A stretch of DNA of 64,000 nucleotides from Patescibacteria group bacterium (GTDB lineage Bacteria; Patescibacteriota; Minisyncoccia; Phycocordibacterales; DATDWN01): NCBI GenBank assembly GCA_040384485.1, contig JAZKJH010000002.1:22235-86234 (forward strand), written 5' to 3'. Below the pieces are notes generated by a model. It was not told the DNA's origin. It saw only the letters and a program-made list of their open reading frames with translations, and did no database searches. The position numbers were made by a program, and so were the translations under genes. Positions 1 to 64,000 of the stretch are shown here, in pieces (position 1 is the first letter of the stretch; each line of letters opens with the position of its first letter).

Positions 1-1
1 G

Positions 2-1183
2 ATTGCAGACAGTAGGGTAGTTATTACAACAGCTCACGGTTCAAAGGGATTAGAGTATGACTATGTGTTTGTTCCTTACGCAACGGATGAATCATGGGTA
101 GGCAGAAGCCACGGACGGAGTTTTGTTTTACCACAAGAAAAAGGGGAAGGTGATGAAATAAAAGATGCTAGAAGACTTTTTTATGTAGCAATAACACGTG
201 CCAAAAGTCATGTAAGTATTCTTACTCCGAAAATGGATATGGATGGCAAGACTTTAACTCCTGTCAGATTTCTGGAAGAAATAGACAGTCGGTTTGTGTC
301 GAGTAAAAACTTTGTTGGAAAACTACCTATCACAACTAGTGTTTATGGAGATATAAAGAAAAAAGAGAAAAAAGAACTAGTAGAGTACGCCAAAAATATA
401 TTACAAGAAAAAGGTTTGTCAGTAACTGCAGTAAACCACTACTTTACTTGTACAAGACAATTTCTATATAAAAGTATTTTGAAAATACCTGAGCCCCCGA
501 CTCCAAGTTCAGAAAAAGGTATTGCTATGCATAAAGCATTCGCAGAGGTTTGGAGTTTGGACAAGAAGGATGTAAAAAGTATTGAGAAAACAATTAACTA
601 TGTAGTTGCTAAACACATAAAGGAATCCTTGCTTACACCGACCGATAAAGAAAATGTTTTGGAAGAGTTACTTAAAGATTCCTCAGCAGTCAGTAGTTCA
701 ATGGTAGAGCACTTTAACCTAGAAGGCAGAGTACTTACAGAAAACTGGAATGAGAAAAGTTTTGTAACTAATTTCGAGGATAAACAGCTGGTTATAAACC
801 TTCATGGGCAACTAGATGCGATAGTAGATACTGAGAAAAAGGTTTTTGTATTTGACTATAAAACCAAAAAACCTATGAGTGAAAAAGCAATAAAAGGGGA
901 AACTCAAAGCGATGACGGGAACTACTGGAGACAACTCGTCTTTTATCGAATGTTGCTCGACGGGAATCATAATTACAAAAATAAAGCCATTCAACCTAGT
1001 TTGTGGTTTGTAAAACCGGACAATGGGGTATGCAAGGAGGCAGTGTTGCCAATAGAGGAGAGTGACATAGAGACGTTACAAAAAGAACTAACTGTTTTAG
1101 TAGAGGATGTATGGAGCGGAAAATTTATTGATAAAAAATGTAGTGATCCTAAGTGTAAATGGTGCGCGATGATTGAGCTATAA
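2..1183 (+). CDS. UvrD/PcrA-like helicase C-terminal region fused to a PD-(D/E)xK RecB/AddA-type nuclease domain with a C-terminal Cys cluster; 5'-partial, the frame is open from the window start
   Basis: Frame 2 reads ...VITTAHGSKGLEYDYVFV... and then ITRAKSHV (helicase motif VI-like). The C-terminal region has GQLDAI, FDYKTKK and a QxxxY-like YRML nuclease signature, plus CSDPKCKWC. Confidence 0.6.
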   Translation: MADSRVVITTAHGSKGLEYDYVFVPYATDESWVGRSHGRSFVLPQEKGEGDEIKDARRLFYVAITRAKSHVSILTPKMDMDGKTLTPVRFLEEIDSRFVSSKNFVGKLPITTSVYGDIKKKEKKELVEYAKNILQEKGLSVTAVNHYFTCTRQFLYKSILKIPEPPTPSSEKGIAMHKAFAEVWSLDKKDVKSIEKTINYVVAKHIKESLLTPTDKENVLEELLKDSSAVSSSMVEHFNLEGRVLTENWNEKSFVTNFEDKQLVINLHGQLDAIVDTEKKVFVFDYKTKKPMSEKAIKGETQSDDGNYWRQLVFYRMLLDGNHNYKNKAIQPSLWFVKPDNGVCKEAVLPIEESDIETLQKELTVLVEDVWSGKFIDKKCSDPKCKWCAMIEL

Positions 1184-1205
1184 TTAAGTATCCTCTTTTC
1201 AACAT

Positions 1206-1295
1206 TATTATTTTTTGAGACTTCGCAGACGGGTAGTCGAGACAGAGCAAAATCGTACCAACGATTTATGCGTGCTCTAAAAATGATAATGTTGA
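1206..1295 (+). repeat. Conserved about 85-nt intergenic motif, copy 1 (core gagacttcgcagacgggtagtcgagac...caacgatttatgcgtgctct), immediately followed by a terminator hairpin; candidate structured sRNA/repeat
   Basis: About 80-85% identical to 4392..4478, with one compensatory change in the internal hairpin aaatcgt/acgattt. Confidence 0.4.
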
Positions 1296-1302
1296 ACGAG
1301 AA

Positions 1303-1333
1303 AAAACAACTGCTAATGAGCAGTTGTTTTATT
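1303..1333. terminator. Intrinsic terminator hairpin acaactgct-aatga-gcagttgt followed by a T-run; sits between convergent genes
   Basis: Perfect 8-9 bp stem followed by TTTTATT. Confidence 0.6.
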
Positions 1334-1360
1334 CGTATATATTGAATTCGTATGCTTGTA

Positions 1361-2893: not shown

Positions 2894-3061
2894 GTCCTTA
2901 TTTCTAGCTATATTTACATCCTAAAAACACCTTAGGTCTGAACAGATACAAAATATCGGTAGTTCTATTGACAACTCTAAATAATTGTGCTAGACTAGTA
3001 CCAGAGCAAGTATCAGCAATCCCACCATATCGGTATCTGCCGATTTCTCAGGAGACACATA

Positions 3062-3622
3062 GTGAAGCACACAATTGAAGAGTATGTTGACAACGGCCTT
3101 CGGATTCTGCTCGGTGAAGTTGATGCTGCGGTCGGTGAGTCCACTGGACGACCCGTTATCCCCGCATATCAGCTCCCCAGCAACCTGAAGAAGGTGACCA
3201 AGGAGATCCAACTTCTCACAGAGAAGGAGGGAACCTCGGAAGAAGAGCTTCTCGTCATCAAGGAAAAGATCAAGAAGACGCGAGGCATCCTTCGCAACAG
3301 CCAGTTGCGACACTGCGTCGACGGCATGCCTGGACTCACGCAACGCTACGAGTCCCTGCCGAAGTCGCTGCGGACGCCTGAGCTTCTGGCGCACAAGGAA
3401 GCATTCGAGTCTGCGGTCACCCTGATCAACGAGAAGAAGATCTGGTACCCGGCCGACATCTCGAAGCTCGCCTGGGCTTACCGTGACGCGATTTGCGAAG
3501 CGGAGGAAAGCCGGGCTGCGCAGAGGGCTCGTGTTACCCAGCAGAAGAGGATCAGCAAGGAACGGGCCGTCGGGCGCCGGACCATTGCTGAACAGATCAT
3601 GGATCTGGTGGGAGCACAGTAG
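3062..3622 (+). CDS. Hypothetical protein encoded in a GC-rich (about 55%) island; GTG start; its own promoter-like TTGACA-17-TAGACT and an AGGAGA RBS
   Basis: GC content is far above the flanks. A protein-like ORF is present only on the plus strand. A terminator follows immediately. Confidence 0.5.
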   Translation: MKHTIEEYVDNGLRILLGEVDAAVGESTGRPVIPAYQLPSNLKKVTKEIQLLTEKEGTSEEELLVIKEKIKKTRGILRNSQLRHCVDGMPGLTQRYESLPKSLRTPELLAHKEAFESAVTLINEKKIWYPADISKLAWAYRDAICEAEESRAAQRARVTQQKRISKERAVGRRTIAEQIMDLVGAQ

Positions 3623-3628
3623 CAACAA

Positions 3629-3671
3629 CCGGTTGATAAGGAAAAAGTTTCCTTATCGACCGGTTTTTTTA
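3629..3671 (+). terminator. Intrinsic terminator (ccgg-t-gataagg...ccttatc-ga-ccgg followed by TTTTTTT)
   Basis: Long hairpin followed by a T7 run. Confidence 0.65.
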
Positions 3672-3718
3672 TATTTAGATTTTTAGTTATCATTAGTTAT
3701 CCAAGGGATGCCCTTGGA

Positions 3719-4478: not shown

Positions 4479-4491
4479 TAAATAAAAGTTT

Positions 4492-6610: not shown

Positions 6611-6682
6611 AAAAAGTGGTTAGATATTGTTTGGAAGTTCACGTAAGTAAAATTAACGTCGTTCGTTCGGGAAGGAAATCGG

Positions 6683-6976
6683 ATGTCACAAAGTATGACA
6701 AAACAGGAAGCTCGCGACTTTTTCAATGGGAGAGTCAAGGAGTTTCTTGTGAGGTGCAGTATAAAAGGGGAAGACCTTTGTGCAAGAACGGGTCTCCTCA
6801 AGACGACTCTGGGTGCTGTTTTGCAAGGAAACTTTACTCGATGCCATCATGACGATTTGTTATCAGTGGCGAAGGTGATTTTTCCTCCAGCCGACAACCC
6901 TAAGTCATACGGAGATATGGAACGTGCCATTCACGTTATCTTCGATGTCGTCCAGTCAGGTAATGTAACCGTTTAG
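6683..6976 (+). CDS. Small HTH (XRE-like) DNA-binding protein in a GC-rich island
   Basis: ...GEDLCARTGLLKTTLGAVLQG... helix-turn-helix pattern; GC-rich; followed by a terminator. Confidence 0.45.
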   Translation: MSQSMTKQEARDFFNGRVKEFLVRCSIKGEDLCARTGLLKTTLGAVLQGNFTRCHHDDLLSVAKVIFPPADNPKSYGDMERAIHVIFDVVQSGNVTV

Positions 6977-6984
6977 ACACATAA

Positions 6985-7022
6985 CCACTGCAGTTGCTAG
7001 GACAACTGCAGTGGTTTTTTTA
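6985..7022 (+). terminator. Intrinsic terminator ccactgcagttg-ctagga-caactgcagtgg followed by T8
   Basis: Perfect 12-bp stem and a T-run. Confidence 0.7.
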
Positions 7023-7078
7023 TTTGCATAATTTTTGTATTAGGTATTTAATAATATAGGAAACTGACTGGAGGTCAC

Positions 7079-7426
7079 TTGGGCAGAAAGATTCAGCGCA
7101 CAGCACTTGCCAGGGCAATGGGTCGGGAAATTCGCGATTGGAGAGATAGATTCTCCCGCGAGCAAATCGTTGAGATATCAAGAGTCAAGAAGAACACGAT
7201 TATCAAAATCGAACATGGTAAATGTCAGCATGTTTCTTCGCGTGACATTAACCGGGTGATTACCGCTCTTTCTCGGCTTAACAAAATCAACGAAGACAGG
7301 CTCCTGCGGATCAAGGATCTTGCCAAAAGGATCACTGAGCCTAAAAACGGCGTTAAAAAAAGGATTGCTCACCGAGTAATGCCATTTAAGCACAGAACTT
7401 TTCGTAGAGGCCTTCGCAAGAAGTGA
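7079..7426 (+). CDS. Small HTH (XRE-like) DNA-binding protein in a GC-rich island; TTG start after a GGAGG RBS
   Basis: ...FSREQIVEISRVKKNTIIKIEHGK... HTH pattern; GC-rich; TGA stop. Confidence 0.45.
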   Translation: MGRKIQRTALARAMGREIRDWRDRFSREQIVEISRVKKNTIIKIEHGKCQHVSSRDINRVITALSRLNKINEDRLLRIKDLAKRITEPKNGVKKRIAHRVMPFKHRTFRRGLRKK

Positions 7427-7444
7427 CCTTTCAAAAACCCCCCA

Positions 7445-7479
7445 GACTTTATAAGCTGGGGGATTTTTTCAACATATTT
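7445..7479. terminator. Bidirectional intrinsic terminator (cccccag...ctggggg, T-run) between convergent genes
   Basis: A-run, hairpin, then T-run. Confidence 0.6.
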
Positions 7480-11147: not shown

Positions 11148-11160
11148 TGAGTAAATAAAA

Positions 11161-11195
11161 AATCGCACAGAGACCAGTTGGTTTCTGTGCGATTG
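11161..11195 (-). terminator. Long hairpin (15-bp stem, aatcgcacagagacc/ggtttctgtgcgatt) acting as a minus-strand terminator for the GC-rich gene 11201..12400
   Basis: On the minus strand the hairpin is followed by TTTTTTATTT. Confidence 0.55.
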
Positions 11196-11200
11196 GGCTT

Positions 11201-12400
11201 TTATCCTGCAAACGGTCGGCATACCCGGCGTTTGAGGTTGTGCCATCGGAGCTCAAGAGTCTGGTGGTTTTTCGGGAGACTCTTGTAAGCGAATGCACTT
11301 TTATTTCTTTCGGTTGAACAGGCAAGAAATCTTACAGATTCTTCAAGTTCAGCTTTTCTTCGTATTTTGGCGAGTTCCACGTTTTTCCATTGTCGCTCTT
11401 TGATTTTTGGTTCGAGCTTTGTAAAGGTGTATAGTCCACCGATACCAAGAACAACGAGGACTGCAGCCCACAACACAAGAGTGTAAATTGACTTGAACTC
11501 TCGCACAATGAAGTACCAGATTCTTTCAAGTCCAACTCCTGTGTAGGAAACCAGCAGGAAATGCGTAGTCGCTAAAAGTATTCCGAAGAGAGGCGACACT
11601 AGCAGTCTGTATGACTTGTTGTTGCCTTGGGTGTCTTCAACGCACCAGTAAGAGGGGCGGGGTTTGCTTCCACTGATCCACACTTCGTCTGCGACATCAA
11701 GCTCATGTTGCCATATAGCTTTGAAGTTCAAACCTCTTGCACATAATGAGGCTAGGCAGACAAACTTGATAGTCCTGAATACTCCAATAAGGAGTGAGGT
11801 TGCTGCAACCAACATGAGTGCTGGCAGGGCAAGTACTGCTCTCTTGCGGAAGTGACAGTCATCCCGAGTCTTTCCTTCAAAACGATTGTTGATGAGCTCG
11901 GTGATCCATTTCGGCCTCTCTTTTGCGAAATGACGACTGTCCACAGTGATTTCAGTAACTGCGTCTGGACCAGCCTCAACAGGCTGAAATTGTCTCTCTA
12001 TGTGGCCTTCAGTAAACCTGATACTGCCGTTGGAAACGAGTTTGAGATAATAGTCGAATTGACTATATTTCTCTGTGAGGTTTTTGAAAAACTTCTCTGG
12101 CTCGTAGTCATCTCTTTCTTCTTTTTTTACCACCGCAACACTCGCCAAAACTTTGTGAGTGCCCGGAAAACGGAAGGTGAGGGGCATAACACCATCACTC
12201 AGGTTTCTGAGGAAGCGTTCTTCTTTGCCGTTATCGTAAACGACACAGATAATTACCTTTGCAAATTCATCCCCAATTAGTCTCTCTGCTGTCCTTTTTG
12301 ATAAGCACCAGCGAACAAAGATTGTGGGGTTTTCGGGTCTAGTACTTTCAACTAGTAATTTGATCACGAGTCCTCTTCTCTTGTTTGGCGTAATTGCCAA
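11201..12400 (-). CDS. Hypothetical protein with a cytoplasmic N-terminal domain and C-terminal TM helices, encoded in a higher-GC island
   Basis: 399-aa ORF with GC-shifted composition and several hydrophobic helices in the middle and C-terminal parts. Confidence 0.4.
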   Translation of the reverse strand: MAITPNKRRGLVIKLLVESTRPENPTIFVRWCLSKRTAERLIGDEFAKVIICVVYDNGKEERFLRNLSDGVMPLTFRFPGTHKVLASVAVVKKEERDDYEPEKFFKNLTEKYSQFDYYLKLVSNGSIRFTEGHIERQFQPVEAGPDAVTEITVDSRHFAKERPKWITELINNRFEGKTRDDCHFRKRAVLALPALMLVAATSLLIGVFRTIKFVCLASLCARGLNFKAIWQHELDVADEVWISGSKPRPSYWCVEDTQGNNKSYRLLVSPLFGILLATTHFLLVSYTGVGLERIWYFIVREFKSIYTLVLWAAVLVVLGIGGLYTFTKLEPKIKERQWKNVELAKIRRKAELEESVRFLACSTERNKSAFAYKSLPKNHQTLELRWHNLKRRVCRPFAG

Positions 12401-12492
12401 CGAACGAAATTCTGCTCAAAACAATATAGTATTTATTATCTTTGTCAAATAAAAACTACCCAGTTGTCGCAGTGACAAAAGGGTAGTTATTA

Positions 12493-12714
12493 CTAAACAT
12501 CGAGGTACATCTCGTCTGCAGTCGGGATGTGCCGCACTGGTGGGAATGCCTTGCTCCAGCAGGTTGGGCAACGTTGCCCACTGCATTCAATGTACAACCC
12601 CATACGACGCGGGTGATCTATGTGTAAGTTCCATGGAAACCCCATATCGACTCCACACCCTTTGCACGTTTCGTTCTCAACTGTCGACGCTTTTTGCTCC
12701 AACTGTTGTTCCAT
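12493..12714 (-). CDS. Small zinc-ribbon-like protein (CxxC...CxxC), GC-rich
   Basis: CKGCGV...CSGQRCPTCW. Separated from the downstream gene by a strong hairpin at 12455-12490. Confidence 0.35.
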   Translation of the reverse strand: MEQQLEQKASTVENETCKGCGVDMGFPWNLHIDHPRRMGLYIECSGQRCPTCWSKAFPPVRHIPTADEMYLDV

Positions 12715-12835
12715 AGTATCTCCTTGGAGAGTTTACGAACGGATACAGAAAACGATATCTAGGTATAATTCAATATTAAATGAGCATTTGTGTCAAGTAA
12801 GCAGTCTGGTAGATTGGTTGTATCCAACAACTAGC

Positions 12836-14651: not shown

Positions 14652-14704
14652 CTCTTTCCTTATCTACCATTATGTGGTATAGATGTAGTTAGATAGGGGG
14701 AGTG

Positions 14705-15550
14705 ATGACAAAACAAGTAGCCGGCCTTAAGCAAAAACTAGAGGTCAGTCTTGGCCTCTCTCAGTTAGCTATCCAAAAAATGGAAAGCAAGTGGAATGAA
14801 ATTGTGGAGAATGATCCATACGCCTTTATCCCACATGAACTCAAAGGAAAAATGTCCACCTCGGATGCTTTTTTGGAGAACATGCGGTTTGGAAGTTTTT
14901 CATCCAGCGCCTTTGCTAAAGTGCTTCGTACTTCTAATACACTCGACAGACGACGAAGATACCTAGAAGGTAAAAAACTCGTTGCTGTTGGTGGTGGGAG
15001 GGCCTACGACGCCAATTGGATTGAGGAAGCTGTGTTGTACGGGGGCTTGGGTGTAACATGGGTGGATGTTTCGGAAAAAGCTTGTGAGTTCTTACGACGC
15101 AGTGTCGAAGAGCAGTTTGTGAGATTGGAGAGGAATAAACATATCCATTTCATAGACAGGTTACGACCAAAGGTTGTTAAAGCGGAGATCAGAACTGCAC
15201 TTTTAAACCCTAGTCTGATTGATTTACCAGATCTTACTTCTGTTGAGGTCTGGTATCTCGCAAGGACACTGGGATGTCTGTCCACCCGTTCAGCGAAAAT
15301 TGTGCTGAGGCTTATGGGTCAGTCACTTTCAAGTGAAAGCGATCCCTTCAAGGAAAACTGCATATTTATTGTAAGTGCCTTGCGGGACGACAACCCATCT
15401 AGAGTTGCTAAATCGAGTAAGCTTTATACTCTCAACACAATCAAATCCAACCTTCGACTTGGGTCAAAGCGTCAAGTTAAGGCTGAAATTATTGAGCGAC
15501 ATTCCTACTTTGGGCAGGAATACTCAGCCGTTCTGTTTAGAGCGAAGTAA
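14705..15550 (+). CDS. Hypothetical protein with intermediate GC (about 45%), inserted between the response regulator and histidine kinase genes; possible Rossmann-like G-rich motif (LVAVGGGRAYDA...VTWVDVS)
   Basis: 282-aa ORF with shifted composition, followed by a 17-bp-stem hairpin. Confidence 0.35.
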   Translation: MTKQVAGLKQKLEVSLGLSQLAIQKMESKWNEIVENDPYAFIPHELKGKMSTSDAFLENMRFGSFSSSAFAKVLRTSNTLDRRRRYLEGKKLVAVGGGRAYDANWIEEAVLYGGLGVTWVDVSEKACEFLRRSVEEQFVRLERNKHIHFIDRLRPKVVKAEIRTALLNPSLIDLPDLTSVEVWYLARTLGCLSTRSAKIVLRLMGQSLSSESDPFKENCIFIVSALRDDNPSRVAKSSKLYTLNTIKSNLRLGSKRQVKAEIIERHSYFGQEYSAVLFRAK

Positions 15551-15551
15551 A

Positions 15552-15592
15552 AATGGCGGATGAGAGCAACATTGCTCTCATCCGCCATTTAT
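15552..15592 (+). terminator. Strong hairpin (aaatggcggatgagagc / gctctcatccgccattt) with a weak T-tract
   Basis: Perfect 17-bp inverted repeat. Confidence 0.5.
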
Positions 15593-29237: not shown

Positions 29238-29368
29238 AGTTTTTAAATGAGTTAAGCTTGTAAGTATATATCTTAAAACTTAATATATTTTTAATCAAGT
29301 TTACTTTTTTAAATATATAAAAATAGTCACTTTGTTTAAGAACAACAAAGTGACTATTCGTGTTTGAT

Positions 29369-29740
29369 TCAGGCAATATCCGATGGGTACATGAACTTTC
29401 CACCCGGGTATTTTCTGATTAGTTGAAAAAAAGAACGCAAATCATCTCGACCAGCCTCTGGTGTAAAGACGATAATGTCCAAAAGCTCATCTTTCCTGCT
29501 CGGTTCTTCCGAGCCACTCAAGAGCTGAATACCATTTGGTAGGTATTGCGCTGCGAGACGCACTAAGTGTGGATTGGCAGAAGGAGGAATTGCATGATGC
29601 ATGTAGGAACTGATGAGCGCCTTGAGTAGATCTGCAAGCGCTGCTGGCAATTCCTGGCTTCGCACACGTCCCTCAAGGTCTTGCCAGAACTCTGAGCGTA
29701 AAACAGTGAGAGGTTGTTCGCTAGTTGTGGTTGTTGTCAA
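29369..29740 (-). CDS. Hypothetical protein (GC-rich island)
   Basis: GC-rich 123-aa ORF. Confidence 0.35.
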   Translation of the reverse strand: MTTTTTSEQPLTVLRSEFWQDLEGRVRSQELPAALADLLKALISSYMHHAIPPSANPHLVRLAAQYLPNGIQLLSGSEEPSRKDELLDIIVFTPEAGRDDLRSFFQLIRKYPGGKFMYPSDIA

Positions 29741-29762
29741 CGTGTTCTCCTCGGAAAAGAAT

Positions 29763-30065
29763 CTATCTGCTGAAAATGAAATGAGCTTCGTAGTTTTCGT
29801 TATAGCCAGGTGAGTCGTACTTCACTTTCCATCCTGCTGCCCGGTATGCTTCTTCAACGTTCAGCCACTTACTTGAAAACCTGCGACTACCGTTCAGTTT
29901 TGCAATGATGAGTTTGGAAACTTCGGGAGTTTCGATTTTTGCCCTACCATCGGCAAAGTTTTGAGCGATGAGCTCATCGAAAGCCTCAAAGACCTCAGGT
30001 GGGAAACTTTCTCGCTGTCTTGCTCCAACCTCACTCGGCTTCATAGGTCCAGTACGTTTAGCCAT
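29763..30065 (-). CDS. Hypothetical protein (GC-rich island)
   Basis: GC-rich 100-aa ORF, 23 bp upstream of the previous gene on the same strand. Confidence 0.35.
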   Translation of the reverse strand: MAKRTGPMKPSEVGARQRESFPPEVFEAFDELIAQNFADGRAKIETPEVSKLIIAKLNGSRRFSSKWLNVEEAYRAAGWKVKYDSPGYNENYEAHFIFSR

Positions 30066-30114
30066 TCGGCCTCCTTTGGAACATTACCATTTATATGAGA
30101 TATGTCAAATAAAA

Positions 30115-31020: not shown

Positions 31021-31067
31021 AAATACAATTATAGCATGTCCAAAAACTATGTTTTATATAAAGCAAA

Positions 31068-31108
31068 ACCCGCGCGATTGCACGGATCGTGCTATCGGCG
31101 GGTGTTTT
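31068..31108 (-). terminator. GC-rich long hairpin (acccgcgcgattgcacg...cgtgctatcggcgggt) terminating the minus-strand genes of island 31120..32438
   Basis: Imperfect about 15-bp stem, followed on the minus strand by a T-rich tract. Confidence 0.45.
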
Positions 31109-31119
31109 GAGAGAGTTAT

Positions 31120-31323
31120 TTATTTCTTCTGACGTTTCTCCCATTTGTCCAGAGCCTTAACTGCCTGGGCAAAGGTCAGATCACCCTCACGGAATGCATT
31201 TAGGATGCCACCCGGGGTGGAGCTGTAACCCACCTTTAAATGGCGTGGTTTCTTTTTCAGAATTTTAGAGATTATGTTCGCTGTCTCGACTAAACCTCTC
31301 CACTCGTTGTCTGTCTTCGGCAT
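31120..31323 (-). CDS. Hypothetical small basic protein (GC-rich island)
   Basis: 67-aa ORF with shifted GC. Confidence 0.3.
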   Translation of the reverse strand: MPKTDNEWRGLVETANIISKILKKKPRHLKVGYSSTPGGILNAFREGDLTFAQAVKALDKWEKRQKK

Positions 31324-31493
31324 CGGACCTCCCGCTGTTAGAATGACATAATAAAATTATAATGTCAAACATGGTGGTTGATAGTGCAGTTTTTATTCAT
31401 AAGAATCATTTTGAAGGAACATTTCACAAGAAAACATGTAAAAAAAGAGCCCGTGCAGAGGGGGTGTAATACTACACGAACTCTTTCACGGAC

Positions 31494-33201: not shown

Positions 33202-33489
33202 ATGATGAATAGAAACTCTTTGTGGATGGCCATTTCAGGCGTCACAGGGTTTCTATTCTTCCTTGTGGCTAACTTATCCGAACTGTTTGTCGGACTTAAC
33301 TTACTTGCAGGGTCGTTGCAACTCTGCCTCAATATCTTCGTGTTTACGGTTTGGCTAAAAGCTTTCCGTGAATTAAAAGGCTTGAAAAAATTTGTGGCTT
33401 TTTGGGGAGTCTGTGTGCCAGTCGTAATGGCTAGTTACACTCTCTACAAGGTTTTTCTACCGACTTTGCAGCAATACATGCGAAGCTAA
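33202..33489 (+). CDS. Small three-TM membrane protein
   Basis: Hydrophobic 95-aa ORF followed by a terminator. Confidence 0.35.
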   Translation: MMNRNSLWMAISGVTGFLFFLVANLSELFVGLNLLAGSLQLCLNIFVFTVWLKAFRELKGLKKFVAFWGVCVPVVMASYTLYKVFLPTLQQYMRS

Positions 33490-33490
33490 C

Positions 33491-33523
33491 ACCCTCAAGG
33501 AGTCTATCCTTGAGGGTTTTTTC
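33491..33523 (+). terminator. Intrinsic terminator accctcaagga-gtctat-ccttgagggt followed by T6
   Basis: Perfect 10-bp stem. Confidence 0.7.
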
Positions 33524-33585
33524 ATGTTATTTTAATTATCCACTTTTATGTTTGTCCGAGTTTTTTGAGGTGATATAATGAACTT

Positions 33586-37436: not shown

Positions 37437-37679
37437 CTGTAAATTATAGCCTAAAACGCTGTAAATTAGCCATTTTATTAGAAAATACAGGGCTCAAGAA
37501 GTAAATATTGACAATATACATAATAAGGTGTATAATAGTAAAAGTAGTTCTTTCAAAACAAGATCGTAACCTGTATAAATCAGGCCTTTTAGGATAGCAC
37601 TTTGAACGCCATTTTGGTTTTTAAAGTGCTACCCTTAAGGAGCTGTGTGACGAGCAAGAACTCGTTATGGAGTTATCAA

Positions 37680-38501
37680 ATGATGCGAAAGTTTTTCCTT
37701 GCAATGGTTTTGGTCTGCCTCGGCATGTCCAGTGTCGCTTGCAGTGCGGTTTCCCCGGACGCTGGCTACGAAGCCGTGTTGGTGAAGAAGCCGTGGTTGT
37801 TTGGGTCTGGTGGTATTGATCCCACGCCGATCAAGGCCGGCAAGACAACGTACGTTGCATTAAGCACCGAGGTTGTGTATGTGAACATGCAGCCTCAGGA
37901 GACTGAGATCGAATTCAAGGACGCCATGACCTCGACGGGTGTTCCTGTTGAATTCCACTCAGCAATGCAGTGGAAGTTTAATGACAGCGTCAAGGCGGTC
38001 TCGGACTTCGGAGTCGACGCTGGCTTTTTCTCTCGGAATATCGAGCAGAAATATCGTATGTCGGTTCGGGATGCAGTCAAAAAGCAGTCCCTGATCGCGA
38101 TTGCCATCGATGCGTCGGCGGCAGAAACCGTTGACTTGGAAGTGAAAACTGCAACGCTGGCAGTCATTAAAGAAGTGGGTGCCCCGATGGAGTTGTTAGG
38201 CGTAACTCTCGGTAAAGCCAACCCTCCTGACGCAGTGAAGACACAGCGTATCCACACTGCCGAACAGCAGCAGCGTCAGGAAACGGAACGGCAGGGCAAG
38301 TTGGCCGAAGATGCGCGAAAATTCCATGAGGAAAGTCGTGCCGAGGCTGACATGGCATATCTCCGAAAGATGAATCTGTCGCCTGAGCAGTTTATTCAGC
38401 TCAAGCAGATCGAAACATTGAAGCAGGTGTGTGCCTGGGAACGTGGCAACTGCACGTTCGTCACAGGCAACACCGGCGGTGCCATGTTCACCATTAAGTA
38501 A
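37680..38501 (+). CDS. SPFH/band-7 domain lipoprotein encoded in a GC-rich island (start taken at MMRKFF...; ORF track start 37602)
   Basis: Signal peptide with a lipobox-like LGMSSVAC, an SPFH-like core, and a C-terminal coiled coil rich in Q/E/R/A. Confidence 0.5.
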   Translation: MMRKFFLAMVLVCLGMSSVACSAVSPDAGYEAVLVKKPWLFGSGGIDPTPIKAGKTTYVALSTEVVYVNMQPQETEIEFKDAMTSTGVPVEFHSAMQWKFNDSVKAVSDFGVDAGFFSRNIEQKYRMSVRDAVKKQSLIAIAIDASAAETVDLEVKTATLAVIKEVGAPMELLGVTLGKANPPDAVKTQRIHTAEQQQRQETERQGKLAEDARKFHEESRAEADMAYLRKMNLSPEQFIQLKQIETLKQVCAWERGNCTFVTGNTGGAMFTIK

Positions 38502-38518
38502 CAGAATTTTGCAAGACA

Positions 38519-38556
38519 CAGGGCCTAGACGTATATGCGTCTAGGCCCTTTTTTAT
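38519..38556. terminator. Intrinsic terminator gggcctagacg-tatatg-cgtctaggccc followed by T6
   Basis: Perfect 11-bp GC-rich stem. Confidence 0.7.
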
Positions 38557-40349: not shown

Positions 40350-40398
40350 GATTTGAATTTATTTATAAAAATGATAGTGTTCTATCCGGAGGTTAGTT

Positions 40399-40602
40399 AT
40401 GTGGACGATTGAATACGGTTCTAAAAACTACGGAGCACTTCACTCAGAAGAGGAGGCCAATGAGTTTCTGTTGAATAAAGGCTGGAAACGAGTTACCGGC
40501 ACACGAAAGCGACGCACGTTTTCCAAAAAGATTGATGGAAATATCAAACTAGCTACAGTTAAGCAAGTCTTCTCATATGAGAGCTACACCCTGTTGCCCT
40601 GA
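40399..40602 (+). CDS. Small basic protein of unknown function, paralog A (MWTIEYGSKNYG...LLP), higher GC
   Basis: GGAGG RBS, its own terminator, and a paralogue of the next ORF. Confidence 0.4.
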   Translation: MWTIEYGSKNYGALHSEEEANEFLLNKGWKRVTGTRKRRTFSKKIDGNIKLATVKQVFSYESYTLLP

Positions 40603-40610
40603 TCGTTCAA

Positions 40611-40640
40611 AATCCAGCAGACTACTCGCTGGATTTTTTG
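40611..40640 (+). terminator. Intrinsic terminator aatccagc-agactact-cgctggatt followed by T6
   Basis: Hairpin and T-run. Confidence 0.6.
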
Positions 40641-40736
40641 TATAAGAAACAGATTTCCAAGAGGTGATCGAAGCACCCAGTAGGTTGCTTGAGAAAATAC
40701 AAAAGGATGCTACTATCTTTGTGGAGGTGTTTAGAA

Positions 40737-40948
40737 TGTGGACCATTGAATACGAAGGTAAATTCTACGGGGAATTCCGTGAAGACCAGTCCGCTATTAT
40801 GTTTTTGATAAACAGGGGCTGGCGATACCGCCCACGTAGATTTTCTCAGCGCAGGTATTTGAGAGGAGTGGGGAGTCGTCTTAAGATGGTTCAGGTTGTG
40901 TGGAAGGCAGGTTTCTTTATTGCTGAAGATCGAGAGCTACTTCCATAG
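40737..40948 (+). CDS. Small basic protein of unknown function, paralog B (MWTIEYEGKFYG...LLP); start taken at the internal ATG after a GGAGGTG RBS
   Basis: Clear N-terminal and C-terminal identity to paralog A. Confidence 0.4.
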
Positions 40949-40956
40949 AATTGTTG

Positions 40957-40996
40957 AATCCAGTGATAGCATCGTGCTGTTACTGGATTTTTTTAT
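40957..40996 (+). terminator. Intrinsic terminator atccagt-gatagcatcgtgctgtt-actggat followed by T8
   Basis: Hairpin and T-run. Confidence 0.55.
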
Positions 40997-41039
40997 TTGC
41001 CGACATTTCGGTGACGATTTGATATACTGGGATATATTT

Positions 41040-51458: not shown

Positions 51459-51536
51459 GTGTCGTAATACAGTATAAAATTTGTTTTTCCTGGGGATGGA
51501 CTACTGTACCTAGATCTGATAGTCTTTTTCACAGAG

Positions 51537-51848
51537 GTGAAAATGTTCGAGTCAGTCAGGGAATTTCTTGCCAAATATAACATCAGTTTGTGGTCAACCG
51601 CTGAGAGCAAACCGAAGGAAGTCAAAAGACTGTATTTTGACTTCTCAGAAGCTGGATGGAATAGGCTGGTTGAGCTGTCAGAAGCTGCAGATCAGACACC
51701 CCAAGCTTTCGCGATCGATGCGATGCGGGAGTCCATGCTGTTTCGAGATCTTTTGGCCACAGCCAAAGCACAAGGCCACGATTTAGTCGTGGGGGTCATC
51801 CACGAAGACGGTTCTGCAGAAGAGATACCGCTTTTCAAAGCACAGTAA
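51537..51848 (+). CDS. Hypothetical protein (GC-rich island)
   Basis: GC-rich 103-aa ORF followed by a terminator. Confidence 0.35.
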   Translation: MKMFESVREFLAKYNISLWSTAESKPKEVKRLYFDFSEAGWNRLVELSEAADQTPQAFAIDAMRESMLFRDLLATAKAQGHDLVVGVIHEDGSAEEIPLFKAQ

Positions 51849-51854
51849 TTTTAA

Positions 51855-51888
51855 GGTCCTAACTACATCAGTAGTTGGGGCCTTTTTG
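51855..51888 (+). terminator. Imperfect hairpin aggtcctaactac/gtagttggggcct followed by T5
   Basis: About 13-bp stem with two mismatches or wobbles. Confidence 0.45.
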
Positions 51889-56738: not shown

Positions 56739-56740
56739 AG

Positions 56741-56774
56741 AAACACCACCCTTTAGAGGTGGTGTGTTTTTTTT
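56741..56774. terminator. Bidirectional terminator acaccaccc-ttta-gaggtggtgt? (acaccacc/ggtggtgt) followed by T9
   Basis: Hairpin flanked by A- and T-runs between convergent genes. Confidence 0.65.
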
Positions 56775-57108
56775 AGCTGTACATTCCTTTTCGGTGTAGA
56801 TCCAGCTTCATTGTGATTTGCGGATCTGTAATTTTTTTGAATCGTGGAACAGTCTCACCATTCACGGTGACTGTTTCCATCCACATTTCAAGTGGTCGCA
56901 AGTCAAAAAGCTGACCATTTACATACACGGAGGCCTCCGGGTACAAGGGCCTGTAGATGACCATGTTTGCGTCTTCAGGTCTGCAATTGTCTTCTGTGTG
57001 GCAACCAACCCCTACAAGCTCGTAGGCATAGTTGTTCACAGATACGGTAGGGTCGTGTTTGTAGTGGTAATAATAACCACGCTCTGGAACTTGTGTCGGT
57101 ATTTTCAT
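56773..57108 (-). CDS. DUF1653-domain protein with a C-terminal extension
   Basis: ...GYYYHYKHDP...YELVGVGCHTE...MVIYRPLY pattern. Confidence 0.45.
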   Translation of the reverse strand: MKIPTQVPERGYYYHYKHDPTVSVNNYAYELVGVGCHTEDNCRPEDANMVIYRPLYPEASVYVNGQLFDLRPLEMWMETVTVNGETVPRFKKITDPQITMKLDLHRKGMYS

Positions 57109-57216
57109 AATTTCTCCTTTTGGAGTTTAGCATTTTGGTGGATGATTTCCAACACCGTTACTTAACTGTGAGTATTTACAATTAATTAAATAAATGGCAT
57201 ATTAAAAAAGGAAACA

Positions 57217-57819
57217 ATGAGAACATTAAATCAAAATTTGGACTATCAAACAATCGATGAGATGTTAAATCTCCTCGATGAACCCAACGGTTCTATTTGC
57301 AAACGTATTTTGGCGGACCACAGAGATCTGTTCGAGAAAGCTCACGGTTCGACTCATAACCATCAGACCTGGGAAGGTGGTTACATCGACCATATTACGG
57401 ATGCAATGAACTATACACGGCATCTGTATGTGTTTGATGGGGCGTTCGGAAGACCGCTTCCATTTTCACTTTCCGATGCTTTGCTTGTAATTTTTCTTCA
57501 CGATTTGGAGAAGCCGTGGAGAATATTGGTTCAAAACGGTCAAGTCTCTAACAGGAAAGGTTTGGCTACCAAAGAGGAGTTCAAAAAGTTTCGTGAGGAC
57601 AAGCTTACGGAATACGGGCTTGTTCTTACTCCAGATCAACTCAACGCTTTTACTTATGTTGAGGGGGAGTACAAGGAGTATTCATCCACTCACCGTGTGA
57701 TGAACGAACTCGCAGCCTTTTGTCACAAAGTCGACACCTGGTCTGCACGTGGGTGGTTTGATTATCCGAAAGCAGAAGGGGATGAGTGGACTGGCGCTGG
57801 AAGGTTTCGTTCGAATTGA
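57217..57819 (+). CDS. HD-domain (metal-dependent phosphohydrolase-like) protein
   Basis: H...H (AHGSTHNH), GGYIDH and FLHDLEKP motifs. Confidence 0.5.
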   Translation: MRTLNQNLDYQTIDEMLNLLDEPNGSICKRILADHRDLFEKAHGSTHNHQTWEGGYIDHITDAMNYTRHLYVFDGAFGRPLPFSLSDALLVIFLHDLEKPWRILVQNGQVSNRKGLATKEEFKKFREDKLTEYGLVLTPDQLNAFTYVEGEYKEYSSTHRVMNELAAFCHKVDTWSARGWFDYPKAEGDEWTGAGRFRSN

Positions 57820-57893
57820 TTCAAGTTCATAATAAGAAAAAACACGGCTTGAGGGTCGTGTTTTATTTTTGCAAATTTTGGGAGTACTTTGGT

Positions 57894-60369: not shown

Positions 60370-60372
60370 ACC

Positions 60373-61146: not shown

Positions 61147-61286
61147 TTCTACCAGTACCCAACCTCTCTAGGTTTGGCTCACAGGTTAAAACACTCAGAG
61201 AAATCTGGGTGTTTTAATTTATAAAAAAATCAGTTTTTTATTGACAAAAAATACCATTAACATACTATGTTTGGCAGGAGGTTCAT

Positions 61287-61958
61287 TTGAATAAATCACA
61301 GAACACGGATATCCCAGTCATCACTCTTGATGGGGATGCTGGTGCTGGAAAGGGTACAACTAGAATACTGGTTGCCCAAAGACTTGCTTGGAACGAACTT
61401 GATAGCGGAGTTCTTTATAGGCTCGTGGCCTATTTGGGTCAGGATTCTCCTACAGAGGACCATTACAGGATCATTGCGCAAGGACTAGTCGGAGTTCGAA
61501 TGTCGGAAGGAAAAGTTTTCTTGTTCGACAGAGTCCTCACAGACAAGGAACTCCGAACTTCTGCTATGGACGCTGCAGCTGCAAAAGTTGCTCGTGACAA
61601 AGAAGTAAGGCTTGCACTTCGAGAGATTCAGGAAAGGGCACGCAGTGGTCGTGGCTTGGTCACTGACGGTAGAGATATGGGAACGATTTTCATTGCTCCC
61701 AATGTTTATCGCTTTTACCTTACAGCCGATGCAGAAGTACGAGCTAGACGGCGTGTCGCTCAGGACCTAGATAAAGACGTGGTCCCGAGCGTGCTCGAAG
61801 TTCGGCGCAGTCTGGAGGAAAGAGATTTGATGGACAAGACAAGAGCAGTCAGTCCACTTACTCTTCATCCTGAAGCGGTGGTTGTTGATACCACTCACAT
61901 GAAGCCGGAAGAAGTGGCGGAACATATTATCAGCATCTATAAGTCCAAGGCAGCATAG
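61287..61958 (+). CDS. cmk: Cytidylate kinase, GC-rich (about 49% GC) xenolog-like copy; TTG start 5 nt after an AGGAGG RBS
   Basis: ITLDGDAGAGKGT P-loop, ...LDSGVLYR..., NMP-binding and LID regions. Confidence 0.7.
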   Translation: MNKSQNTDIPVITLDGDAGAGKGTTRILVAQRLAWNELDSGVLYRLVAYLGQDSPTEDHYRIIAQGLVGVRMSEGKVFLFDRVLTDKELRTSAMDAAAAKVARDKEVRLALREIQERARSGRGLVTDGRDMGTIFIAPNVYRFYLTADAEVRARRRVAQDLDKDVVPSVLEVRRSLEERDLMDKTRAVSPLTLHPEAVVVDTTHMKPEEVAEHIISIYKSKAA

Positions 61959-61961
61959 ATA

Positions 61962-61994
61962 TACCGAGAAGGTAACACCTTCTCGGTTTTTTTT
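61962..61994 (+). terminator. Intrinsic terminator ccgagaagg-taacacc-ttctcgg followed by T8
   Basis: Perfect 7-9 bp stem followed by a T-run. Confidence 0.7.
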
Positions 61995-62052
61995 ATTACA
62001 CAAATCTGTGGAAAACTATTTGACCTGTGCTTACTGTATCTGATACAATAAC

Positions 62053-62266
62053 ATTGTGAGTTTAGGTTGAGTTGGTTCGTTTGGAAGTTGCACATGCACT
62101 TCCGAACACCTCCTCAATCTGGCTCGCACCAGTATCACTACCGTCATCAAAGCTATAGCTTAGATGACACCAGTTCTTTTGTTCGCACGTTCTCCCGTTT
62201 TTGGACCATGTGGTCCACCCCTTACAACCTCTTGCCACGGCACGAGGTTTTTTATATATAAACTCA
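62053..62266 (+). ncRNA. Candidate structured ncRNA of about 210 nt. It is locally GC-rich with several hairpins, lies between a putative promoter (TTGACC-18-TACAAT at 62016-62045) and a terminator-like hairpin plus T6 at 62241-62266. Identity unknown.
   Basis: ORFs on both strands here (62062..62277 minus, 62067..62261 plus) have non-protein-like composition. Hairpins: ggaagt...acttcc, gtcatcaaagc-tata-gcttagatgac, ggaccatgtggtcc. Confidence 0.3.
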
Positions 62267-62334
62267 ATCCGACGCACTTTACATAGGTGAGACCTATGTA
62301 TTTATAGATGTGTGTTTCGTGTTATAATCCAAAA

Positions 62335-62682
62335 ATGATACAAAAAACCATAAATTCTTTCAGGTATGCACTAAGAGGTCTCAAAACAACTTGGTCAGAG
62401 GAACATAACTTTAGAACGGAAGTCTTTGCCACTGTACTTGTTGTTATTTCTATTTTTTATTTTGATTTTACTTTTGTTGAAGCAGCAATCCTAGTTCTTG
62501 CTGTTACTCTTGTTCTTTGTGCAGAGATCATAAACACGGTGGTTGAAGATTTATGTAATAAAGTAGAGCCATCGCACGATCCAATAATCGCCAAAATAAA
62601 AGACACTTCAGGAGCATTTGTTCTGGTCGCTGTTATCGGCGCAGTTGTTGCTGGAGTTTTTGTGCTACTAAATCATTTTTAA
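62335..62682 (+). CDS. dgkA: Diacylglycerol kinase/undecaprenol kinase family (DgkA). The ATG lies 7 nt after an extended -10 (TGtTATAAT), so the transcript is possibly leaderless.
   Basis: ...FRYALRGL...EEHNFR...CAEIINTVVE...DTSGAFVLVAVIGAV... three-TM prokaryotic DAGK pattern. Confidence 0.7.
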   Translation: MIQKTINSFRYALRGLKTTWSEEHNFRTEVFATVLVVISIFYFDFTFVEAAILVLAVTLVLCAEIINTVVEDLCNKVEPSHDPIIAKIKDTSGAFVLVAVIGAVVAGVFVLLNHF

Positions 62683-62686
62683 TTGA

Positions 62687-63385
62687 ATGTTGGACGATAT
62701 CTATCGGGAAATAAACAGGAGAGGTAATAAAATAAAAGCGCAACAAGCACAGAGATTTTTTAAAACTGGCGAAAGTAGTTACAGTAAAGGAGATGTGTTT
62801 TTAGGCTTGAATGCAAAGGATGTAGACTTTGTTTCAGAAAAGTATGTTGATTTGGGGATTCCGTTTGTTGTGAAGCTTTTAAAATCTGAAATACATGATT
62901 ATCGAGATGTGGCACTATCGATTTTGGTTTTGAAATATAAAAAAGGAGACAAGATTGTTAAAGACAAGGTAGTCAAAACTTATCTTGCTAACAAAAAATA
63001 TGTTAATAACTGGGATTTGGTGGATGGAAGTGCCTACAAAATACTTGGGGACTATCTTTTGGATAAAAGTAGAGATGTTTTATATAAACTGGCTTGTTCT
63101 AAGGTCATGTGGGACAGAAGAATAGCTATAGTTTCGACTTTTGCCTTTATACGTTCTGGCGATACAAAAGATGCTGTAAAAATTTCTAAAATTTTACTGA
63201 ATAATAGAGAAGACCTAATGCACAAGGCAGTTGGTTGGATGTTAAGAGAGGTTGGTAAAAAAGATGAAAAAATCTTGAAGGATTTTCTAAATAAAAATAT
63301 AAAAGTTATGCCCAGAACAACATTGAGATACTCAATAGAAAGATTTCCAGAAAATATTCGACAGTATTATCTAAAACTTAAGTAA
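62687..63385 (+). CDS. DNA alkylation repair enzyme (AlkD/AlkC-like HEAT-repeat glycosylase family)
   Basis: ...NNWDLVDGSAYKILGDYL...MWDRRIAIVSTFAFIR...HKAVGWMLREVGKKD... family pattern. Confidence 0.6.
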   Translation: MLDDIYREINRRGNKIKAQQAQRFFKTGESSYSKGDVFLGLNAKDVDFVSEKYVDLGIPFVVKLLKSEIHDYRDVALSILVLKYKKGDKIVKDKVVKTYLANKKYVNNWDLVDGSAYKILGDYLLDKSRDVLYKLACSKVMWDRRIAIVSTFAFIRSGDTKDAVKISKILLNNREDLMHKAVGWMLREVGKKDEKILKDFLNKNIKVMPRTTLRYSIERFPENIRQYYLKLK

Positions 63386-63425
63386 CTTTGTTTTCAAAAG
63401 AAGTAGTATTGTATATAATATACAT

Positions 63426-64000
63426 ATGAATCAAGAGAGTCTCCCTAAGTTCAATAGCCCTGAAGAGGAAATTGCTTTTTTGCGTCAGCAAATCTCAAAC
63501 AAAGAGTTAGAGCTTCGAGAAAAAAAGGAAGATTTTAAACTTGAAGAAGTTGTTCAAGACCAAATATCTAGATATAGAGACACTCTACCGAAGCAAGTTT
63601 TAGAAGAAACATATGAGTTATCAAAGCACGATGCTGAATCTATTGTTTTAAACCTGGAGCCAGAACAACACGACGACAAGATGAGCGAGCTTTTGGGTAT
63701 TATGAATGAAAAGGGTTTGAAAAATGCCATGACCGTTCTGTCTCACTTCAAGGACCCTCACCTAGAAGATGACTTCCACAGGTTTTTAGTGCAATACATA
63801 AAACACGGTTATGTGTCAAAAGATATTGATACATATAGCAAGGAATTGAGAGGTCTCAGTATGACTCTATATGAGGTGGTGATGCTTGAAAGTCAGGATG
63901 ATAATGATCCCAACAAAAATAAATCCTTAAAGGAAGTTATTTCAAGTATGGAGCAGTTTTTGTCCGGTATGATATCAGTGACAGCAAAGGACGAGACAAA
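63426..64000 (+). CDS. Hypothetical protein, 3'-partial (the ORF runs off the window end)
   Basis: Open frame from the ATG at 63426 to the window end. Acidic, helical composition. Confidence 0.3.
   Translation, partial: MNQESLPKFNSPEEEIAFLRQQISNKELELREKKEDFKLEEVVQDQISRYRDTLPKQVLEETYELSKHDAESIVLNLEPEQHDDKMSELLGIMNEKGLKNAMTVLSHFKDPHLEDDFHRFLVQYIKHGYVSKDIDTYSKELRGLSMTLYEVVMLESQDDNDPNKNKSLKEVISSMEQFLSGMISVTAKDET

Follow-up and report, generated by a model that had tools for sequence, protein, structure and literature searches.

The window analysed here is a 64,000-nucleotide stretch of DNA from a Patescibacteria group bacterium (contig JAZKJH010000002.1, positions 22,235 to 86,234) in which short GC-rich islands of 0.3–1.7 kb, numbered 1 to 12 in Table 1, are set in an AT-rich backbone. 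The islands are probably horizontally acquired expression cassettes, mostly monocistronic and occasionally of two or three genes, that have been placed in the intergenic spacers of a Paceibacteria chromosome. The island genes have a foreign codon usage, several islands are exact insertions by comparison with sibling genomes, some of the gene junctions that carry them are hot spots, and the traceable cargo genes have relatives on mobile DNA. An earlier reading of the letters, which I hereafter call the sequence-only reading, had proposed that small terminator-bounded foreign cassettes were acquired repeatedly, and the insertions and deletions, the hot spots and the mobile-pool relatives support this proposal wherever it can be tested.

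The window is part of a Paceibacteria (Parcubacteria) chromosome. The large open reading frames (ORFs) annotated in the backbone are ordinary Patescibacteria housekeeping genes, among them hisS, truB, bipA, uppP, a class A PBP gene, nadE, fmt/def, priA, two mreB, mreC, the PBP2 gene, frr, rseP, greA, lysS and the mraZ-rsmH-ftsI-mur series, together with tRNA-Asn and tRNA-Glu. A scan of a genome collection with HisS yielded 80 loci, each at most 71% identical in amino-acid sequence to the HisS of the window, and nearly all of them are labelled Paceibacterota, Parcubacteria, Zambryskibacteria or Taylorbacteria. An exact look-up of the HisS of the window found no record of it. Labels such as L084 denote sibling or relative loci or contigs that were retrieved by scans and compared with the window.

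The mean GC content of the window is 38.7%, and sliding GC displays a local maximum at each of the 12 intervals where the sequence-only reading had seen a jump. Since proteins rich in Gly, Ala, Arg or Pro raise GC by themselves, the GC of each gene was set against that predicted for its amino-acid sequence if encoded with the codon usage of the backbone (synonymous z test, 18 island ORFs versus 62 backbone genes). All 18 island ORFs gave z values of +3.0 to +13.6, with a GC content at third codon positions (GC3) of 0.41–0.71, in contrast to a mean of -0.09 (standard deviation 1.33, maximum 3.3) and a GC3 of about 0.22–0.40 for the backbone genes. The highest values were obtained for the gene of island 1 (13.6), the SPFH lipoprotein of island 7 (11.9) and the 399-aa (amino-acid) protein of island 3 (7.3). 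Because z, which controls for amino-acid content, is high in every island ORF, the mosaic exists at the codon level and lies far beyond chance; it is real and statistically strong, and the atypical composition that characterizes horizontal transfer is found in 18 of 18 island ORFs. By contrast, a YflT-like gene (27466–27981) and a Zn-peptidase gene (28428–29237) are GC-elevated but have z values below 0, an elevation therefore driven by amino acids, and the sequence-only reading was correct in leaving both off its list. The GC steps fall at ORF boundaries, the adjoining promoters and spacers remaining AT-rich.

The gene order PDDEXK, dsbA, bacA, exo, hisS, truB, bipA, VTT, h81, bPH, h72 is conserved in the 80 HisS loci, and the island ORFs at 1–16 kb have no tblastn match in these loci. 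A PriA scan of metagenomes gave the closest sibling, L084, which is 78% identical to the window in nucleotides and 65–98% in amino acids over 13.5 kb. The alignment of the two skips from 37440 to 38549 and from 40359 to 41039 of the window. The SPFH island is exactly missing in L084, where h246 and priA are only 4–6 nt apart, and so is the mini-protein island (island 8), mreB and holB being 10 nt apart there. Compared with L084, the window contains clean additions of 1.1 kb and 0.7 kb, with intact flanking genes and no other remnant DNA; no target-site duplications were seen at these two exact insertion junctions. The same comparison corrects the start of holB in the window to 41040. In a second sibling, L085, in which the order is h93, tRNA-Glu, cmk (59% identity) and DAGK (82% identity), island 12 is missing and the cmk-DAGK gap is 62 nt. 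The presence/absence check proposed with the sequence-only reading thus favours acquisition for islands 7, 8 and 12. It does not for cmk (island 11), which the same reading had placed among the foreign islands: its GC is indeed elevated (z +4.3), but the gene is syntenic in L085, where its GC is 0.475 in a 0.39 backbone, and is therefore an old resident rather than a recent insert.

Genes converge at the junctions between exo and bacA and between truB and bipA, where islands 1 and 2 lie in the window, and both junctions are turnover hot spots. They hold segments of 350–1300 bp with a GC content of 0.45–0.56 in sibling genomes of 0.37–0.43 GC, L001, L002, L003, L006, L008, L009, L014, L024 and others being examples. 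At the exo|bacA junction, the GC-rich ORFs of the siblings are unrelated to the ORF of island 1. At the truB|bipA junction, ORFs in L002, L003 and L014 are 24–29% identical to the helix-turn-helix (HTH)-like protein of the window, far below the 50–86% identity of the flanking genes. In a lineage-wide survey of 83 sibling loci, each ORF was scored against the median GC of the conserved genes of its own locus. An excess of more than 0.06 over the backbone was found for 19% of orphan ORFs, 18% of ORFs present in only one or two other loci, and 1% of ORFs conserved in at least ten loci, so that variable genes include GC-rich ORFs about 15 times as often as conserved genes do. ORFs of the AT-rich tail are half as frequent as those of the GC-rich one, and at least one GC-rich ORF occurs in 56 of the 83 loci.

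Ten of these GC-rich sibling ORFs were compared with Pfam, and eight matched a family. Nucleotide kinases recur among the products of the GC-rich variable ORFs of siblings, as do other enzymes of salvage or metabolism: kinases of the ADK family were found four times independently (L012, L023, L026 and L044), as well as a glutamine synthetase (L034/L035), a NUDIX hydrolase and a PEP-CTERM protein (L013), the PEP-CTERM sorting signal being known mainly from Gram-negative bacteria. The cmk of L032 is also GC-rich.

For three cargo genes, the best relatives outside the Candidate Phyla Radiation (CPR) reside on phage or megaplasmid DNA of 47–63% GC, in which their composition is native. The HD-like 200-aa protein of island 10 is 67% identical to the product of a gene on a 206-kb IMG/VR jumbo phage contig of uniform 53% GC and 47% identical to a protein of huge phage LR745206. 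Variovorax megaplasmids encode a hypothetical protein with 66% identity to the HD-like protein (gene GC 0.60), next to NUDIX and nucleoside 2-deoxyribosyltransferase genes. The homologues have native composition in both jumbo phage and megaplasmid while the CPR copy is a compositional misfit, so that the simplest view is that the CPR genome imported the gene. An identity of 66–67% across phyla is moreover far above that of housekeeping proteins. The label 'HD-like' rests on an HDLEKP motif spotted by eye only; a sequence search of the PDB with this protein returned nothing significant.

The SPFH protein has many relatives. The closest, 78% and 66% identical, are encoded by two other CPR-type contigs, where the gene has a GC content of 0.52–0.54 beside backbone genes of 0.35–0.42; SPFH genes are thus found in three different gene contexts across three CPR genomes and are GC-rich in each. 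The copies do not share a cassette boundary: they align over the coding region only, at 72% nucleotide identity, and have neither promoter nor terminator in common. In L081, the gene adjoining SPFH is a 133-aa ORF (10990–11391) with a GC content of 0.62. The SPFH protein is also 55–56% identical to the products of genes with native composition on contigs L086, L087 and L094 (47–60% GC), which are phage-like by gene content: L086 has terminase, ERF and YqaJ genes, L087 long arrays of small ORFs, and L094 ThyX and SLT genes and large tail-like ORFs. Chromosomal bacterial copies are 50–51% identical, one of them named Vicinamibacterales. In INPHARED, a lipoprotein of a Tunturiibacter (Acidobacteria) phage is 44% identical, and many SPFH proteins of Stenotrophomonas and Xanthomonas phages were matched. 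A separate observation is that L083 encodes, at 3114–4961, a 615-aa OmpA-domain protein with a GC content of 0.59 and a GC3 of 0.74, beside a PBP2 gene of 0.35 GC.

The 100-aa protein of island 5 is 32–42% identical to hypothetical proteins of roseophages MD18, DSS3P8 and RpAliso; the IMG/VR matches of island 5, 17 residues long, were disregarded. IMG/VR scans gave nothing for islands 1, 3, 4 and 9, the DUF1653 protein of island 10 or SPFH. The cmk product has two or three relatives at 46–59% identity, followed by others at about 40%, and those that are named belong to Legionella and other Gammaproteobacteria. Judged by sequence identity only, the closest homologue lies outside the lineage for the HD-like protein, SPFH and cmk, and most remaining cargo proteins are ORFans. 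The single high-GC donor envisaged by the sequence-only reading does not agree with these results, since island GC3 spans 0.41–0.71 and those sources that can be traced are mobile gene pools of various kinds. Nor do the islands form a clean amelioration gradient: island 8 is recent yet only mildly GC-rich, which indicates that donors differ in GC.

The islands are also distinguished by their architecture, promoters and terminators being predicted as consensus matches. A hairpin followed by a T-run terminates 16 of 18 island genes versus 38 of 62 backbone genes, with a median stem of 13.5 versus 9 bp and a median of 6 versus 2 G-C pairs. The fold energy of the 60 nt downstream of the gene is -20.5 kcal/mol for island genes and -7.0 kcal/mol for backbone genes (p = 1.5e-6). 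A strict promoter pattern (TTGAC-N16-18-TnnnnT at most 150 nt upstream of the gene) precedes 7 of 18 island genes versus 8 of 62 backbone genes, and an AGGAG/GGAGG ribosome-binding site lies ahead of nearly every island ORF. The idea that each island is a self-contained unit with its terminator and one to three ORFs is largely sound as regards the terminators but fails at 62060–62270 (island 12), where there is no credible ORF. The opposition drawn between GC-rich island terminators and AT-rich native ones was overstated, the terminators at the operon ends of NadE, GreA and h72 also having G+C cores; what truly sets the islands apart from the backbone is the monocistronic character of their genes, each with a terminator of its own. 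As the sequence-only reading had remarked, the islands come without an integrase: no integrase or recombinase gene was found among the annotated ORFs of the window. A direct-repeat scan of the window found no repeats bracketing any GC island.

Several other explanations of the mosaic were weighed. That the islands are the last survivors of larger integrated elements, prophages or integrative islands, which have otherwise decayed, is unlikely. Some cargo does have phage relatives, a 2.9-kb insertion of native GC adjoins tRNA-Glu, and island 6 lies by tRNA-Asn and island 9 by lysS, where direct repeats of 57–64 nt duplicate gene 3' ends. However, these repeats bracket AT-rich inserts and not the GC-rich islands, the SPFH and mini-protein inserts are clean relative to L084, and the window has shown no fragment of a terminase or structural gene, any more than an integrase. 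For islands 6 and 9, beside these repeats, such a decay is nevertheless conceivable. The islands might instead be native, fast-evolving genes whose high GC is due to selection or, at recombination hot spots, to GC-biased gene conversion. The absence of two islands from the closest sibling, the occupation of the same junction by unrelated proteins, the confinement of the GC steps to ORF boundaries, the identity of 66–67% with plasmid and phage genes of proteobacteria, which greatly exceeds vertical similarity across phyla, and the low GC3 of the likely highly expressed backbone genes frr, greA, mreB and bipA all make this improbable, even though GC is elevated at the same junctions in siblings only 65–70% identical in HisS, cmk is syntenic and GC-elevated in two lineages, and most island proteins, being ORFans, point to no donor. 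For cmk and the HTH gene this explanation is more plausible.

In AT-rich genomes, RNA genes are conspicuous for their GC content, and two islands have features of structured RNA: the region of island 1 folds better than shuffled sequences (z = -4.5), and island 12 combines a fold z of -5.4 with the lack of an ORF and of a Shine-Dalgarno (SD) sequence. As an explanation of the islands in general, structured non-coding RNA genes are nevertheless very unlikely, since no island has an Rfam match at E <= 0.1, all islands other than island 12 consist of SD-preceded ORFs with a coding-type pattern of GC at the three codon positions, Pfam domains occur in three and protein homologues exist for several. 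Island 12 itself, with its promoter-like motif, structured segment and terminator, is a candidate small RNA of about 210 nt. The least credible explanation is that the mosaic arose artefactually, from mis-binned fragments or a chimeric metagenome assembly. The sequence-only reading had kept a doubt about chimerism, and the contig does come from a metagenome-assembled genome (MAG); two island proteins are registered as products of an NCBI Patescibacteria MAG, on a contig of 331,679 bp. Against an artefact, intact syntenic backbone genes are present on both flanks, with the junctions in spacers; the promoters, SD sequences and terminators of island genes match those of the backbone in style; the same mosaic recurs in 56 of 83 independent assemblies; and L081 and L082, which come from different samples, are base-identical over 11.6 kb across a mosaic junction.

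Several points weigh against horizontal acquisition of cassettes as the account of the whole mosaic. Islands 3, 4, 5, 6 and 9 and parts of islands 1 and 2 are assigned by composition and architecture only, and most of these seven islands have no homologue. Each region is compared with one close sibling, so that loss in the sibling and gain in the window are formally inseparable. No target-site duplication, integrase or recombination site was found, and the integration step is conjecture. The promoters and terminators are predictions, and L087 and L094 are putatively phage-like on the strength of their genes. Finally, the GC of cmk and of the HTH gene is elevated in lineages that diverged long ago, when simple amelioration predicts that it should fade; its persistence requires repeated replacement or selection on composition.

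The following pathway would account for cassette acquisition. The cell would receive DNA of phages or mobile elements belonging to co-resident bacteria of higher GC, possibly its hosts, either by the natural competence typical of Patescibacteria or by abortive phage injection. Since no target-site duplication and no recombinase were found, integration is proposed to occur by illegitimate or micro-homology recombination, with no dedicated integrase. Inserts would be retained where no essential transcript is broken, that is, at convergent gene ends, or in spacers when the cassette brings its own terminator and a promoter able to restart the downstream gene; islands 7 and 8 indeed have promoter-like sequences facing priA and holB. 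Composition would afterwards drift towards that of the AT-rich backbone, the young inserts (island 1, SPFH) being the most GC-rich and old residents such as cmk retaining only a residual GC excess. The cargo appears to be accessory and comprises an SPFH lipoprotein of phage type besides small regulators, membrane proteins and enzymes of nucleotide salvage. A bolder hypothesis, that the capture of single genes is routine and selective in Paceibacteria, which would draw them from the megaplasmids and phages of the bacteria of higher GC on which they live and place them, independently of integrases, at a few tolerated junctions, is conceivable but doubtful.

Among known systems, the islands most resemble in build the morons of HK97/HK022-type phages, extra genes that bring a promoter and a terminator of their own and have a GC content unlike that of their neighbours (PMC3594210). 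Islands likewise have a predicted promoter and terminator, at the level of consensus, a deviant GC content, and a site between genes that are adjacent in relatives (h246|priA and mreB|holB in L084, cmk|DAGK in L085); moreover, SPFH lipoproteins are common phage accessory genes (phrog_200). Unlike for morons, the recipient is a cellular chromosome, with insertion amid housekeeping operons (priA, mreB, holB, hisS, mraZ) and no prophage, and there is no evidence of a link between island expression and lysogeny. Since the flanks are conserved Paceibacteria housekeeping genes, the islands are moron-like in build and not strict morons. They are moron-like cassettes from several sources, with cmk and island 12 as exceptions.

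Transferred genes of atypical composition (genomic islets) and integrase-free hot spots of horizontal gene transfer (HGT) between core genes are known in bacterial evolution. The islands share with them an atypical codon usage, a patchy distribution, recurrent core-gene junctions, ORFans and the lack of mobility genes, but are unusually small, individually insulated and GC-richer than the recipient; acquired DNA in most bacteria tends to be AT-richer than the recipient. Foreign composition and accessory cargo are also features of tRNA-linked genomic islands and integron cassettes, and the short ORF units recall the latter. Unlike these, the islands are scattered rather than arrayed, each unit has its own predicted promoter and Rho-independent terminator, and there are no att or attC repeats and no integrase. 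The island hairpins are dispersed, are followed by a T-run and have no sequence family common across islands, and there is no intI. A classical integrative island has an integrase, direct repeats, a tRNA linkage and usually more than 10 kb; here there are no integrase and no bracketing repeats, and the sizes are those given above. In groundwater Patescibacteria, HGT with genomic islands of 2.7–45 kb, prophages and, by phylogeny, single transfers has been described, and gene gain through competence, phage or conjugation proposed (PMC12455944). The phylum and class are the same and genes of nucleotide metabolism and regulation are likewise acquired, but the cassettes of the window, below 1.7 kb, lie under that size range, and HGT in these genomes may therefore be under-counted.

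Table 1. Islands of the window and their genes. Promoters and terminators are predicted; z, synonymous z value.
Feature	Coordinates	Strand	Content	Sliding GC (interval)
Island 1	2968..3672	+	186-aa ORFan 3062–3622, GC 0.58, GC3 0.71, z +13.6; promoter TTGACA-17-TAGACT 2968–2996; SD; terminator 3627–3665, 18-bp stem	0.55–0.59 (3001–3800)
Island 2	6611..7478	+	97-aa ORF 6683–6976, z +3.2; terminator 6983–7016	0.43–0.44 (6601–7400)
Island 2, second gene	7079..7426	+	115-aa HTH-like ORF, z +5.3; own terminator	
Island 3	11150..12835	-	Zn-ribbon-like 73-aa gene 12493–12714, z +4.6	0.43–0.48 (11201–12800)
Island 3, second gene	11201..12400	-	399-aa membrane protein, z +7.3; final terminator 11161–11194	
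Island 4	14652..15590	+	282-aa ORF 14702–15550, z +4.9; terminator 15551–15590, 18-bp stem	0.46 (14801–15400)
Island 5	29300..30114	-	two-gene unit: 100 aa 29763–30065, z +3.2; 123 aa 29369–29740, z +3.5	0.47 (29401–30000)
Island 6	31030..32490	-	138 aa 32022–32438, z +4.5	0.43–0.47 (31201–32400)
Island 6, second gene	31494..31892	-	132 aa, z +6.5	
Island 6, third gene	31120..31323	-	67 aa, z +4.6	
Island 7	37437..38548	+	SPFH/Band-7 lipoprotein 37680–38501, GC 0.53, GC3 0.63; terminator	0.50–0.53 (37601–38600)
Island 8	40350..41039	+	tandem mini-proteins 40399–40602, z +3.6, and 40736–40948, z +3.0	0.43 (40401–41200)
Island 9	51476..51888	+	101-aa ORF 51543–51848, z +4.2; terminator	0.45–0.46 (51401–52000)
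Island 10	56739..57873		divergent pair; DUF1653 (Pfam) 56773–57108, minus strand, z +3.8; terminator	0.39–0.46 (56601–57800)
Island 10, second gene	57217..57819	+	HD-like 200-aa protein, z +3.7; terminator	
Island 11	61240..61994	+	cmk 61287–61958, Pfam Cytidylate_kin, z +4.3; TTGACA promoter; terminator	0.48–0.50 (61401–62000)
Island 12	62016..62290	+	promoter-like TTGACC-N17-TACAAT; about 210 nt of GC-rich structured sequence; terminator	
Possible extra island	33202..33530	+	95-aa membrane protein 33202–33489, z +3.3, GC3 0.50; promoter; 14-bp terminator	

Among the island proteins, significant matches in Pfam, PHROGs and PADLOC were restricted to Band_7, Cytidylate_kin, DUF1653 and phrog_200, and none to a PADLOC defence system. 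The SPFH and cmk products named by the sequence-only reading were thus confirmed by Pfam (SPFH also matching phrog_200, 'lipoprotein', in PHROGs), and the tandem mini-proteins are indeed paralogous (33% identity). Of its two XRE-type HTH proteins, by contrast, only the 115-aa protein of island 2 has even a sub-threshold Pfam match to HTH_31 (E = 0.0034). The gene of island 1 lies between convergent uppP/bacA and an RNase-H-like exonuclease gene; its product matched only itself in a word-index search of 5.8 billion sequences and had no relative in an exhaustive HMMER pass over 1.84 billion representatives. Island 2 lies between convergent truB and bipA. Each of the two genes of island 3 has a TTGACA promoter and a hairpin terminator, and their products have no Pfam, PHROG, PADLOC or sibling match. 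Island 4 is wedged between a response regulator gene (13974–14651) and that of its presumed partner histidine kinase (15615–17204), the transcription of which its terminator may uncouple. The island 4 protein has no family match in Pfam, PHROGs or PADLOC, and a PDB search gave nothing significant; one non-significant PDB match is the sole hint that it may be 'methyltransferase-like'.

Island 5 has a TTGACA promoter and an 18-bp terminator. Island 6, which adjoins tRNA-Asn, comprises three monocistronic genes, each with its own promoter and/or terminator. Island 7 is inserted within the former h246-priA operon and has a perfect promoter, TTGACA-17-TATAAT (37505–37533), at -175 nt from the gene; its protein matches Pfam Band_7. 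In island 8, each mini-protein gene is followed by an AATCCAG...CTGGATT terminator, and a promoter-like stretch then precedes holB. Island 9 lies between a remnant of the lysS 3' end and mraZ, and its protein has a weak match to phrog_8557 (E = 0.0013). The possible extra island at 33202–33530, absent from the list of the sequence-only reading, is a weak candidate.

The window also contains insertions and repeats that are not GC-rich islands. A 64-nt direct repeat (32491–32554 and 32931–32994, 89% identity) copies the last 6 nt of tRNA-Asn and its terminator and brackets a 376-bp AT-rich insert with small ORFs only; a small event of integration or duplication at the 3' end of the tRNA seems to have left it as a scar. 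A 57-nt direct repeat (50933–50989 and 51397–51453, 93% identity) duplicates the lysS 3' end, the second copy encoding a dead C-terminus, ERMLAILVDKPLRELQAFPLRCRNTV*, and an AT-rich ORF for a 91-aa membrane protein (51036–51311) lies between the copies. The two AT-rich inserts are unrelated in sequence, so that kinship between them was rejected. An 85-nt repeat (1205–1289 and 4392–4476, 82% identity) occurs in two intergenic regions and folds (z about -5.8) into a hairpin that terminal inverted repeats close; the differences between the copies appear to be compensatory. It has no Rfam match and one partial match, in sibling L010, and may be a MITE-like element or a small RNA. The block at 58298–61200, directly downstream of tRNA-Glu, has a backbone-like GC content and is missing in L085. 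It encodes an S24/LexA-like peptidase, a 123-aa ORF, a caspase-like Peptidase_C14 protein and ORFs of 135 and 88 aa, and may be a defence or abortive-infection module; given its native GC, not all insertions in the genome are GC-rich. The two mreB paralogues (39306–40349 and 44742–45803), 4.4 kb apart, are 48% identical to each other and both 98% conserved in L084.

Discussion of the reduced genomes of Patescibacteria usually centres on gene loss. In the window, individually insulated genes of recent gain make up about 15% of a housekeeping region, their source being at least in part the phage and plasmid pools of unrelated, GC-richer bacteria. HGT recognized by atypical composition is textbook knowledge, and the value of the case lies in a clean, well-delimited example and a practical marker rather than in a new principle; it is useful for its tidy cassettes, for a shift in composition towards GC and not AT, for its hot spots and for the links to phages. 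The junction hot spots together with the GC contrast mean that cassettes could easily be harvested across thousands of MAGs. The cassettes are candidates for functions in host interaction or phage defence, and their relatives might hint at the organisms that host uncultured episymbionts. If routine capture were true, the cassettes would constitute a readable record of exposure to hosts and phages, from which hosts could be inferred by composition and homology, and the GC-rich nucleotide kinases (cmk and the four ADK-like enzymes of siblings) would represent adaptive piracy of salvage functions.

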